The notes under the pieces: generated by a model
Seen by the model: the letters and a program-made list of their open reading frames with translations, nothing else
Databases searched by the model: none
Told to the model about the DNA's origin: nothing
Assembly (NCBI GenBank): GCA_913064775.1
Contig: CAJYAD010000022.1
Span: forward strand, 532-64,531
Direction: 5' to 3'
Origin: an uncultured Albidovulum sp.
GTDB lineage: Bacteria; Pseudomonadota; Alphaproteobacteria; Rhodobacterales; Rhodobacteraceae
Length of the DNA stretch: 64,000 nt
Translations under genes and position numbers: made by a program
Shown: piece by piece, positions 15,833-34,160 of the stretch
Layout: each line of letters opens with the position of its first letter
How positions within the stretch are numbered: the first letter of the stretch is position 1

Positions 15833-15896
15833 GATTTCCTCCCTTGAAGCCCTGCGTTAGGAACGCCTGGCAAAGTATTGACTGAAAACCCTTATC

Positions 15897-16382
<486 letters not shown>

Positions 16383-16509
16383 TCTCTCCTCCCTCAAGAA
16401 CTTCCTCTGAATCGGGGCGAGTAAAGCACGGGGGGGCGCAATCGCAAACAGTGAATTGCGACAGGCTGCCGCACGATGCCGGGAGGAGCGTCGGGCGGCG
16501 ACGCAAGAC

Positions 16510-17582: not shown

Positions 17583-18617
17583 TCAGCCTTTCCGCAGGGT
17601 TTCGGTGATCTGGGCAAGGATCGCCATGGCGATCTCGGCCGGGCTCTTGGCGCCGATGTCGAGGCCCACGGGGGCGTGGATGCGGGCGATCTGCGCCTCG
17701 GTCATCCCGGCCGCCTTCAGCCTGTCGAGCCGCTTGGCATGGGTGCGGGAGGAGCCGAGGCAGCCAAGGTAGAAGGCGTCGGAATTCAGCGCGGCAATGA
17801 TCGCGGGATCGTCGATCTTGGGATCGTGGCTGAGCGTCACCACGGCGGTACGGGCATCAAGGCCATAGGCCGCCAGCGCCGCGTCGGGCCAGTCGTTGCT
17901 GATCGTCTCGCCGGGGAAGCGGGCGGCGGCGCCGAAGGCTTCGCGCGGGTCGACGAGGAAGGGATCGTAGCCGGTCAGCCGGGCCATCTGCACCAGCGGC
18001 TGGGCGATATGGGCAGCGCCCACGATCACCATGCGCAGGGGCGGGTTCTGGATGCCGATGAACTGGCGCCCGTCCTCGGCGATCCCGGATTTGTCGCTGC
18101 GGTAGCGGCTGCGGATCGCGTCTTCCAGCGCATCGCCCGGCCCTTCGGTCACCCTTGTGTCCCAGCTTTGCAGATCGACGATCATGGCAACCGGCTTGCG
18201 GGCGGCGCGGGCCTTGGTGATCTGGGCCAGCTTTGCCTCGGTCAGCGTGCCGCCGACGGGCTGCACCAGCACCCGGATCGTGCCGCCGCAGGCCAAGCCC
18301 ACCGCGAAGGCCTCATCATCCGAGACGCCGAAAGTCAGCAGCCGCGGGACACCGTCATCGAGGGCTTCGAGCGCCTCGACCACCACTGCGCCTTCGACGC
18401 AGCCGCCCGAGACCGAGCCCATGATGTCGCTGGCGCCCGAGATCGCCAGTTGGCTGCCCACCGGGCGCGGCGCCGAGCCCCAGGTCTCGACCACGGTGGC
18501 AAGGGCGGCGCGGCGGCCGTCGCGGTGCCAGTCGAGCGCGATTTCGGGGATCTGGTCATGTGCGCGGGGTTGGGTGCCGGGTTGGGCCCCGGGGTGAGCG
18601 CTGGGTGCTTTGGTCAT
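17583..18617 (-). CDS. xdhC: XdhC/CoxI family molybdenum cofactor maturation chaperone
   Basis: TWGSAPRPVGSQL, GSVSGGCVE, GLACGG, IHAPVGLDIGAKSPAEIA. Confidence 0.92.
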   Translation of the reverse strand: MTKAPSAHPGAQPGTQPRAHDQIPEIALDWHRDGRRAALATVVETWGSAPRPVGSQLAISGASDIMGSVSGGCVEGAVVVEALEALDDGVPRLLTFGVSDDEAFAVGLACGGTIRVLVQPVGGTLTEAKLAQITKARAARKPVAMIVDLQSWDTRVTEGPGDALEDAIRSRYRSDKSGIAEDGRQFIGIQNPPLRMVIVGAAHIAQPLVQMARLTGYDPFLVDPREAFGAAARFPGETISNDWPDAALAAYGLDARTAVVTLSHDPKIDDPAIIAALNSDAFYLGCLGSSRTHAKRLDRLKAAGMTEAQIARIHAPVGLDIGAKSPAEIAMAILAQITETLRKG

Positions 18618-18740
18618 GGCGGCCTCCTCGGGTGGCGACTATGGGGCGGAATGCGCCCCGGCGCCAGTCTGAGATATGGCGTGCGGCGGGCTTGACCAGG
18701 GGCACGCGAGGCGCGGGTGGGCACGGTGCCCGGCGTCGAG

Positions 18741-18779
18741 GAAAAAAGAAGGCGCCGAGAGAGGGAGGTCTCTCGGCGC
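18741..18779 (-). terminator. Rho-independent terminator of the candidate sRNA
   Basis: GCGCCGAGAGA-CCTCCC-TCTCTCGGCGC-CTTCTTTTTTC on the minus strand. Confidence 0.85.
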
Positions 18780-18860
18780 ATCACAAGATCCGGTCAGGGA
18801 GGGATCGGATCTTGGAAAGTACAGGCTGAGCCGGTTGACTGGGGGCGGCACCGCCCGTGT
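18741..18860 (-). ncRNA. Candidate small regulatory RNA with two CCUCCC loops
   Basis: Intergenic. Perfect 9-bp stem (18784-18792/18806-18814) with loop AUCCCUCCCUGAC; perfect 11-bp stem (18752-18762/18769-18779) with loop CCUCCC followed by a U-rich tail. The 5' end is inferred from the FNR box centred 41.5 bp upstream. Confidence 0.7.
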
Positions 18861-18894
18861 GAGCGCTTTTTGACAGGGCTTCAGGGGGCCGACC

Positions 18895-18908
18895 TTGATC
18901 TGGATCAA
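18895..18908. promoter_or_regulatory. FNR/FnrL/FixK-type binding site
   Basis: TTGAT-CTGG-ATCAA is an exact match to the TTGAT-N4-ATCAA consensus; it overlaps the coxE stop codon. Confidence 0.8.
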
Positions 18909-20164
18909 TCGGCGCCGAGCATCGCCATCAGCCGGGCTTTTTCGCCCGCGTCGAAGGGGTCCGAGATCGCCCGCGCCAGCCCTTCGAGCGAGGCGATGTT
19001 GTGACCGGCGCGGAAGCTGTCGACATGGGGCAGCATGGTGCGGATGCCGCTGGCGCGCGGGGCGAAGCCGTCCCAGCGCAGCAGCGGGTTCAGCCAGATC
19101 AGGCGGCGGGCGGAGAGGTGCAGCCGCTCGATCTCGGGGCCGAGCGCCCCCTCTTCGTCGCGGTCGAGCCCGTCGGTGATCAGGATCACCACCGCATTCG
19201 CCATCACCCGGCGCGACCAGTCGCGGTTGAAGGCGCGCAGGCTGCTGGCGATGCGGGTGCCGCCTTCCCAGTCGCGCGCCTCGGCCCCCGCCGCCGCCAG
19301 TGCCGCGTCGACATCGCGGGCGCGCAGTTGGCGGGTGATGTTGGTCAGCCGCGTGCCGAAGGTGAAGGCATGGACCTGGGCCCAGCCCTGCCCCTTGGTG
19401 TTCGAGACCGCGTGCAGGAAATGCAGCACCGCGCGGCTATAGGCCGACATCGAGCCGGAGATGTCGCACAGCACCACCAGATTGGGCCAGCGGGTGCGGC
19501 GGGCGCGGCGGGCGAAATCGCGGATCTCGCCGCCTTGACGCAGGGCGGCGCGGAAGGTGGCGCGCCAATCGGGCTGCGCACCATGCGGGTCGCGGCGGGT
19601 GCGGCGCGAGGCGATCGGGCGCACCGGCAGCGACAGCCGGGCGAGGATGCGCTTGGCCTCGGCCATCTCGGCGGTCGACATCTGTTCGAAATCGAGGCCG
19701 CGCAGCCGTTCGCGGGAGGAGGCCGTGCGCGCCGCGTCGATCTCGATCTGCTCTTCCTCGGGCGTCTTGGGGGCGGCGTCGGGCAGATCGGGGCGGTTCA
19801 GGTCAAGCAAGGCTTCGGCGGCGCGTTTCTCGGCGGCGGCGGCGCGGCGTTCCTCTTGCGCGCCGTGCAGGGCGGGCAGCATCATCGCCATCATGTGCTC
19901 GATATAGCGCGGGTTGCGCCAGTAGAGCCGGAACACCTGGGCGAAGACCATGCGGTGTTCGGGGCGGCGCACGAAGCAGGCGTGCAGCGTCCAGTAGAAA
20001 TCCTCGCGCTCGGAGAAGCCCACCGCCTCGACCGCGCGGATCGCGTCGAGGACCGAGCCGGGGCCGATCGGCAGGCCCGCGCGGCGCAGGGCGCGGGCGA
20101 AATGGGTGATGTTGCCGGCAAGCTTGCCGTCTTCGGGGATCTCGAGCGCGGGGAGCTGGGCCAT
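18905..20164 (-). CDS. coxE: VWA-domain protein (CoxE family)
   Basis: MIDAS motif DISGSMS, FTFGTRLTNIT, DWEGGTRI, ITDGLDR, WLNPLL; follows a MoxR ATPase. Confidence 0.88.
   Translation of the reverse strand: MAQLPALEIPEDGKLAGNITHFARALRRAGLPIGPGSVLDAIRAVEAVGFSEREDFYWTLHACFVRRPEHRMVFAQVFRLYWRNPRYIEHMMAMMLPALHGAQEERRAAAAEKRAAEALLDLNRPDLPDAAPKTPEEEQIEIDAARTASSRERLRGLDFEQMSTAEMAEAKRILARLSLPVRPIASRRTRRDPHGAQPDWRATFRAALRQGGEIRDFARRARRTRWPNLVVLCDISGSMSAYSRAVLHFLHAVSNTKGQGWAQVHAFTFGTRLTNITRQLRARDVDAALAAAGAEARDWEGGTRIASSLRAFNRDWSRRVMANAVVILITDGLDRDEEGALGPEIERLHLSARRLIWLNPLLRWDGFAPRASGIRTMLPHVDSFRAGHNIASLEGLARAISDPFDAGEKARLMAMLGAD

Positions 20165-32450: not shown

Positions 32451-34160
<1,710 letters not shown>

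Follow-up and report, generated by a model that had tools for sequence, protein, structure and literature searches.

A predicted FNR-activated small RNA gene with anti-Shine-Dalgarno loops between coxE and xdhC in an uncultured Albidovulum, and its relatives

The alphaproteobacterial cuckoo RNAs (alpha-r14, CcsR1-4; Rfam RF02344 for ar14 and RF02791 for CcsR1) carry adjacent hairpins with C-rich, anti-Shine-Dalgarno (anti-SD) loops, and the family is defined by the motif CCUCCUCCC in each hairpin loop (PMC4615179). The canonical cuckoo loop, CUCUCCUCCUCCCUG, ends in a CCUCCCUG core. AbcR (alpha-r15), Xanthomonas sX13 (RF02232), actinobacterial 6C, and Scr3202 (RF02833) likewise present C-rich loops to G-rich sites at or near the SD. 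A further theme is the small RNA (sRNA) that is driven by an FNR-family regulator and represses mRNAs unneeded without oxygen, as described for FnrS of E. coli, AniS of Neisseria, RSs0019, RSs2461, and PcrZ (PMC8139620; PMC4263372). RSs0019 and RSs2461 are FnrL-bound sRNAs of R. sphaeroides (PMC4263372). PcrZ, the closest case, is a low-oxygen sRNA dependent on PrrA and FnrL, is reported only from R. sphaeroides, and lies between rhlE2 and RSP_6134 (PMC3672276). Neither Rfam 15 nor the literature searched describes a widely conserved FNR-activated equivalent for the Rhodobacterales.

The locus described here belongs to an uncultured Albidovulum with a genome of 4.38 Mb and 66% GC. It was found in a stretch of 64,000 nucleotides, referred to as the window (G000:C22:532-64531). 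Feature coordinates are window positions and refer to the minus strand. The locus sits between coxE and xdhC, accessory genes of a CO-dehydrogenase-like cluster of form II, as indicated by the coxL-like active-site motif AYRGAGR. Its parts and flanking genes are as follows.

18905-20164, minus strand: upstream gene for a CoxE-type VWA protein of 419 aa (Pfam VWA_CoxE, 1.1e-62)
18895-18908, minus strand: perfect FNR/FnrL-type box TTGAT-CCAG-ATCAA (TTGATCCAGATCAA, a palindrome), read directly in the sequence
18867-18872, minus strand: predicted -10 hexamer CAAAAA, degenerate, 22 nt past the box, positioned as in other members of the family
18742-18860, minus strand: predicted sRNA of ~119 nt, with +1 at A18860 placed by class II geometry and the 3' end placed in the U-tract
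18816-18860, minus strand: 5' domain, poorly conserved (67% identity to Allgaiera indica) and without a C-rich motif in this genome
18784-18814, minus strand: hairpin 1, a perfect 9-bp stem (CAAGAUCCG/CGGAUCUUG) with a 13-nt loop, AUCCCUCCCUGAC, at 18793-18805
18742-18779, minus strand: intrinsic terminator from the terminator scan, with its hairpin at 18779-18752 (perfect 11-bp stem GCGCCGAGAGA/UCUCUCGGCGC)
17583-18617, minus strand: downstream gene for an XdhC/CoxI-family maturation factor (Pfam XdhC_C and XdhC_CoxI; NCBIfam XdhC_rel_AOR)

These features are best explained, with a probability of roughly 0.72, as a stand-alone gene for a trans-acting sRNA of ~119 nt (about 18860-18742, minus strand) that would be driven by FNR and would expose anti-SD loops. 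The initial annotation, made from the window alone, had proposed an FNR-activated sRNA of this design, and comparative genomics supports that interpretation. From the promoter geometry, an FNR-family activator would bind the box at low oxygen, centred at -41.5, and recruit RNA polymerase by class II activation. Transcription would end at the intrinsic terminator. The loops AUCCCUCCCUGAC and CCUCCC, predicted to be exposed, are perfect complements of SD sequences of the AGGGAGG class. By analogy and complementarity, pairing between loop and SD would block ribosome binding, destabilise the target mRNAs, or both. The best-matching candidate targets are two CO-dehydrogenase-type operons. Expression, the dependence on oxygen and FnrL, the RNA ends, the involvement of Hfq, and the targets are all features that we infer from DNA sequence. 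Sequencing runs listed for this DNA were DNA metagenomes (mine drainage, salt marsh, mangrove), with no RNA run among them.

Both hairpins read by the initial annotation, a perfect 9-bp hairpin and a perfect 11-bp stem with a CCUCCC loop and a U-tract, are exact in the sequence (18814-18784 and 18779-18752). The loop of hairpin 1 holds the CCUCCCUG seed. The terminator loop CCUCCC occupies 18763-18768, and the U-tract tail, CUUCUUUUUU, runs to 18742. The terminator scan reports exactly the 18779-18752 site, with one terminator found against 0.2 expected. The 128-nt RNA folds at -52.2 kcal/mol, compared with -32.6 +/- 3.4 kcal/mol for shuffled sequences (z = -5.8), and 0 of 200 shuffles are as good. 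The small 5' hairpin that had also been proposed exists as a GGGCGG/CCGCCC pairing, but the minimum free energy fold prefers a longer closing stem, ACGGGC/GCCUGU, whose counterpart in A. indica is ACGGGC/GCCCGU. In most other genera the 5' domain carries an extra UCUCCCUG motif. With regard to a trans-acting sRNA gene, the Rho-independent terminator is thus confirmed by the scan, and a promoter of its own is suggested by conservation.

Relatives were sought with a covariance model (R1, then R2) built from the two 3' hairpins alone, leaving out promoter and box sequence. The model was run on 150 and then 80 genus representatives of the bacterial family (230 other genera). The resulting sRNA family has 16 members in at least 13 genera of the Rhodobacteraceae/Paracoccaceae, related genera of marine and soil origin. 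The members come from 10 of the 230 other genera sampled, three congeners, two MAGs, and G402, the one extra genus returned when a 20-nt terminator pattern was searched in 400 genera. A BLAST search with the locus in 40 relatives gave matches in two congeners only, and a typical member had no BLAST match among the PLSDB plasmids. Among the coxE-downstream regions of 80 relatives, most are without the element, which is present in Acidimangrovimonas pyrenivorans (type strain KCTC 62192) and two Paracoccaceae MAGs.

Although the model holds no promoter sequence, an FNR-type box lies upstream of all 16 members, against a background of 0.056 boxes per 400 nt. In 13 members the box is 77-127 nt upstream of the model start, and in 13 of the 16 a TA-initiated hexamer stands exactly 22 nt past it. 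The nine best-scoring loci with C-rich loops (G135, G022, G049, G047, G059, G078, G162, G014, and G178) all have a box of the form TTGAY-N4-RTCAA 80-104 nt upstream of the model start and a TA hexamer at 22 nt. The box is missing from all lower-scoring model hits, which are either canonical CcsR copies or ordinary terminators. Sequence conservation among members begins 6-7 nt past the -10 hexamer, an onset that fits a transcription start 6-7 nt past the hexamer.

The stems of the family covary. The alignments used to count pairs (a 15-sequence and a 7-sequence set) had been fitted to the model. With 15 sequences, 92.9% of cells are paired, and sliding the partners gives 52.5% at most. Compensatory, both-side changes occur in 14 of the 20 stem pairs, and none of 500 shuffles reaches the observed covariation score. 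For hairpin 1, all nine pairs show compensatory changes among the 15 members, and the CUCCCU core of the loop is conserved. For the terminator, 98.7% of cells are paired in the 15 members and five of the 11 pairs show compensatory changes, with a conserved loop of (C/U)CUCCCU. The loop cores are kept while the stems vary. Members carry two to five hairpins across the family, and two adjacent ones are present in this genome. The initial annotation had suggested covariation analysis and had made its sRNA depend on conserved hairpins. The 14 covarying pairs of the model-fitted alignment answer the first point, and on the second the hairpins are conserved with their loops in 16 loci from at least 13 genera. 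At the sequence level, the CUCCCU loop cores supply the conserved seed of a base-pairing sRNA, and ribosome-binding-site (RBS) 10-mers, described below, supply the mRNA complements.

This pattern also bears on a coding explanation. A frame of 89 codons starts from the TTG of the box (18908-18639) and could encode a small protein, and it is open both here and in A. indica (121 codons). At 66% GC, long open frames often arise by chance. This one has no RBS, its start being inside the end of coxE. Between the two species only the hairpin nucleotides are similar, with no bias towards synonymous changes; the 5' part differs, and the stems covary as RNA. The small-protein reading was rejected on the missing RBS, the missing synonymous bias, and the limitation of similarity to the hairpins, and is very improbable.

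The FNR box is exact in the sequence at 18895-18908 on the minus strand, where the initial annotation had placed it. Base composition predicts 0.31 perfect TTGAT-N4-ATCAA boxes for this genome of 4.38 Mb, and 10 are present, an excess of ~30-fold. Eight of the 10 are in a promoter-like intergenic position. These include the boxes upstream of the gene for 5-aminolevulinate synthase (hemA; TIGR01821, 667 bits) and upstream of ccoN (TIGR00780, 806 bits), both classical members of the FnrL regulon (PMC2908626). Among the regulators encoded is an FnrL-like protein whose N-terminus carries a cysteine cluster and whose recognition helix reads ETVSR, besides a second, partial copy of it and a further regulator with an E--SR helix. 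With at least two regulators carrying an E--SR helix, sequence does not decide which Crp/Fnr paralogue would bind the box. Many family members have boxes of the form TTGAC-N4-GTCAA, which Dnr/Nnr-type regulators also recognise.

A class II FNR promoter has a TTGAT-N4-ATCAA site near -41.5 that replaces the -35 element. Here the box is perfect, and +1 is predicted from this geometry: the box centre, 18901.5, is 41.5 nt from A18860, which is seven nt after the hexamer. The spacing between box and hexamer (22 nt) equals that in the 13 of 16 members with a TA-initiated hexamer. The proposed class II geometry, with a predicted +1 near 18860, is thus matched by a spacing conserved across the family. 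The initial annotation was also right to call the predicted -10, CAAAAA, weak: it lacks the TA of the TANNNN hexamers of 13 of the 16 members, and the strict sigma-70 scan of the locus found no consensus promoter. Position 1 of the hexamer is C here and T in other members, which have TATCAA, TATCTC, TAGTTT, TAAAAG, TAGACA, TAGAAC, TAGAAA, TAGGAC, TATCTT, TAGAAG, or TACATC at the same position. The hexamer of A. indica is AACAGA, and the weak -10 is a degeneracy specific to the lineage of this genome and A. indica.

In 11 of the 16 members, the 70 nt ahead of the FNR-type box hold a further element, TGTCGCA or its complement, against 0.009 expected per 70 nt (loci L099-L104, L109, L127, L003, L007, L058, and L103). 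The distance from its end to the box is exactly 18 nt in seven members, where the consensus is AWWTGTCGCAG. It is absent from window positions 18909-18980 and from A. indica. The element could be the site of a second regulator, as its GTCGC resembles a PrrA/RegA half-site.

Promoter strength in this genome is uncertain, because here and in A. indica the -10 has lost its TA, TGTCGCA is absent, and the box overlaps the stop of coxE. The TGA stop codon of coxE (18907-18905) lies within the box, and coding constraint from this overlap could account for part of the conservation of the box. The FNR-driven sRNA is therefore supported with high confidence at the level of the family but with only moderate confidence for this genome, where the -10 is degenerate.

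The same weaknesses are the basis of the most serious alternative, in which the locus amounts to no more than the 3' UTR and terminator of coxDE mRNA. The hairpins would then stabilise and end that mRNA, and the box at the end of coxE would be a relic, a roadblock, or a repressor site, with no independent FNR-driven RNA in this genome. The overlap of box and stop codon, the degenerate -10 hexamers (CAAAAA; AACAGA in A. indica), the empty search for a sigma-70-like promoter, and the lack of the TGTCGCA of 11 of the 16 members all agree with it, and the terminator is placed to end coxDE transcription. However, comparison with the congener A. indica DSM 24802 speaks against it. The coxE-box-RNA-xdhC arrangement is the same there, at 78% identity, and the box is identical at 14 of 14 positions while the next 34 nt, the promoter spacer, are 53% identical. 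Perfect boxes, ~30-fold over-represented, otherwise stand at promoters. A plain terminator needs no second conserved hairpin with a conserved C-rich loop. Additionally, in the other 14 members the class II promoter is well formed and the upstream neighbours differ, with an SDR or OmpA-family gene in some of them. The 3' UTR reading is thus unlikely, and part of the RNA may also arise here as the 3' end of the coxDE transcript.

Conservation past the promoter spacer follows the RNA. Relative to A. indica, hairpin 1 is 88% identical (29/33), and the terminator is near-identical, its segment scoring 74% (40/54) owing to a terminal gap. DNA past the terminator is 46% identical with large indels, and a separately conserved block then precedes the xdhC ATG. 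This block of ~60 nt directly 5' of the xdhC start (18618-18679, minus strand) is near-identical in A. indica, and the DNA before it is unalignable. It contains CCATATCT and a hairpin, GGGGCG-CAUUC-CGCCCC, followed by a GAGGAGG ribosome-binding site, and is probably the promoter and leader of xdhC itself.

These data also concern a cis-acting alternative, in which FNR starts a leader or attenuator of the xdhC operon and the hairpins and terminator set read-through into xdhC and the molybdenum-cofactor genes. The gene xdhC starts 125 nt past the sRNA terminator in the same orientation, and the order sRNA-xdhC-MoCF recurs in A. indica, G402, and G162. A leader of this kind is nevertheless improbable. 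The DNA between terminator and xdhC is unconserved and is followed by the gene's own conserved block, no alternative anti-terminator pairing is apparent, and the terminator is a perfect 11-bp stem with a U-tract. In three to four other members the next gene is convergent; it is infC in two genera, encodes a YkuD protein in another, and encodes a thiolase in Acidimangrovimonas sediminis (type strain MS2-2). In A. sediminis, 2.3 kb separate the module from coxE; an OmpA-family gene comes in between, and the thiolase gene faces the module. The box (TTGATGCAGATCAA) is followed after a 22-nt spacer by the hexamer CTATAT, and the module further comprises three CCUCCC motifs and the same terminator. 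Location inside the cox cluster, as claimed by the initial annotation, is therefore true for this genome but is no family trait. The differing flanking genes and the convergent downstream genes argue that the sRNA is a stand-alone gene rather than a cox leader or a mere coxE terminator as its general function.

At L099 and L102, in two genera, the sRNA gene is tail-to-tail with infC, which encodes translation initiation factor IF-3. At L055 and L035, in two relatives, an FNR-type box just past coxE is followed by a membrane-protein gene (N-terminus MTLNWK...) instead of the sRNA, so FNR sites recur past coxE with different cargo.

Candidate targets of the predicted stand-alone sRNA were assessed by complementarity to its loops. 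Two lie in the form II cluster of the window.

16388-16395, minus strand: candidate target GAGGGAGG, RBS of the form II coxS-like gene (ATG 16382), complementary to CCUCCCUC of the terminator loop and stem
15838-15844, minus strand: candidate target AGGGAGG, RBS of the form II coxL-like gene (ATG 15832), proposed from complementarity

Longer complements point to a second operon. The 10-nt complement of loop 1, GUCAGGGAGG, is in the RBS of form I coxM on contig C6, the only gene in the genome with such an RBS. The 10-nt complement of loop 2 plus stem, GAGAGGGAGG, is in the RBS of three genes in the genome, one of which is form I coxS on the same contig. The form I CoxL is authentic (AYRCSFR motif; TIGR02416, 1405 bits). 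In its aerobic CO dehydrogenase operon, which lies outside the window (G000:C6:78194-81970; L124), a gene for a MoxR-type ATPase comes after coxM-coxS-coxL, and seven molybdenum-hydroxylase clusters were counted in the genome. AGGGAGG stands at the RBS position of 76 genes in the genome, but all 14 subunit genes in the other molybdenum-hydroxylase clusters lack it. The genome-wide TIR ranking used a crude ORF set of 6633 frames and is indicative only.

The relatives limit what these matches can say. No orthologue of form I coxM turned up in the closest relatives that carry the sRNA (G001-G003 and G402), and in A. indica, G402, and G162 the sRNA does not neighbour form II coxS and coxL. The unusual SD variant (C)AGGGAGG is kept at form II coxS and coxL across many genera of the bacterial family, with or without the sRNA (L140-L156). 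It is also present in one genome of a neighbouring family and is complementary to the canonical CcsR loop as well. Co-evolution of the cox ribosome-binding sites with the sRNA was rejected, since AGGGAGG is equally conserved in relatives without it and the complementarity accordingly shows no sign of co-evolution. Complementarity thus points only weakly to these genes as targets. A separate stretch 5' of form II coxS, ATTC(A/C)CTGTTTGCGA..GCG...GTGCTTTACTCGCCC (window 16396-16470; L133-L135), is kept in four of four species of the genus and is likely a promoter or operator of the coxSLM genes.

If correct, the stand-alone sRNA reading would mean that roseobacters and paracocci have a conserved sRNA behind an FNR box, with anti-SD loops, which may silence genes at low oxygen. 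Oxygen sensing would then be linked to how a defined class of mRNAs with strong SDs is translated, and mRNAs for aerobic CO oxidation may be among them. Regulators of the FNR family act as activators, yet the expression of many genes falls while these regulators are active. In Dinoroseobacter shibae, Fnr/Dnr regulators 'repress' CO dehydrogenase genes (PMC5398030). A more speculative view, which we hold only tentatively and consider doubtful as a whole, is that the family is a sibling of the CcsR/cuckoo RNAs wired to hypoxia rather than to stress, with the CCUCCCUG seed, an Fnr/Dnr-type drive, and possibly a second factor at TGTCGCA. Such a sibling would put an 'AGGGAGG-SD regulon', including both aerobic CO-dehydrogenase operons, under negative oxygen control. 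If true, it would account for the 'repression' of CO dehydrogenase genes in roseobacters by regulators of activator type (PMC5398030) and would show a cuckoo-like seed re-used under a different signal.

With respect to catalogued families, Rfam 15 assigns no family at gathering score to the sRNA locus or to 15 related loci. The CcsR1 and ar14 models give no match on the locus at E<=10, and the locus is not among their own-genome hits at E<=1. On relatives, the ar14 and CcsR1 models score 26-32 bits (CcsR1 31), compared with gathering scores of 58.8 (RF02344) and 65.3 (RF02791). Other sub-threshold scores are those for Scr3202 (35.3 bits; gathering score 52), anti-hemB (37), and sX13 (32.3; gathering score 50), and suhB and mmgR also appear at this level. 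The initial annotation did not recognise the sequence, and the Infernal search of Rfam, with sub-threshold scores only, agrees. In the same window, the Rfam 5_ureB_sRNA model matches 33720-34007 (plus strand) over its full length with 114.8 bits. This model usually matches the 5' part of ureB itself, and the match probably just marks a urease gene.

The same genome carries a canonical CcsR1-4 cluster (G000:C1:25091-25517, minus strand) directly downstream of a DUF1127 (CcaF1-like) gene. The cluster consists of four tandem two-hairpin RNAs with CUCUCCUCCUCCCUG loops, and one copy exceeds the Rfam gathering score. The R1 model picks up CcsR copies weakly. The claim that C-rich loops serve here as in AbcR and CcsR holds for the design, which is cuckoo/CcsR-like and includes the CCUCCCUG core. 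It does not extend to the motif that defines the cuckoo family. Two adjacent hairpins are present, within the two to four of cuckoo RNAs, and the loop of hairpin 1 shares the CCUCCCUG core of the canonical loop. However, CCUCCUCCC is in neither loop (AUCCCUCCCUGAC and CCUCCC), and CCTCCTCCC is counted 0 times in the eight top family hits versus 4-7 times in true CcsR loci. The neighbourhood also differs, being coxE/xdhC with an FNR-type box rather than DUF1127 (CIN1) with an RpoHI/RpoHII promoter. Unlike the tandem CcsR cluster, the gene is single-copy, and its last C-rich loop is the terminator loop. By the CCUCCCUG core that it has in common with cuckoo loops, the RNA would work like a cuckoo RNA, yet it fails the defining motif of that family.

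The comparison with FNR-driven sRNAs is one of logic. No similarity in sequence or structure to FnrS (RF01796-type) and no Rfam match was found, and, in contrast to FnrS-type sRNAs, the predicted seeds lie in C-rich hairpin loops and would target the SD itself. The likeness to RSs0019 and RSs2461 is drawn by description alone. Identity with PcrZ was rejected on its published restriction to one species and its different locus (PMC3672276), a separation made by description and not by sequence; the present family spans at least 13 genera. AbcR, sX13, 6C, and Scr3202 differ from it in phylum, sequence, and regulator, with all scores below the gathering thresholds, and their resemblance to it is one of convergent architecture. 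Taken with these systems, the sRNA family is apparently uncatalogued but of a known kind, predicted to be FNR-activated and to act through anti-SD loops.
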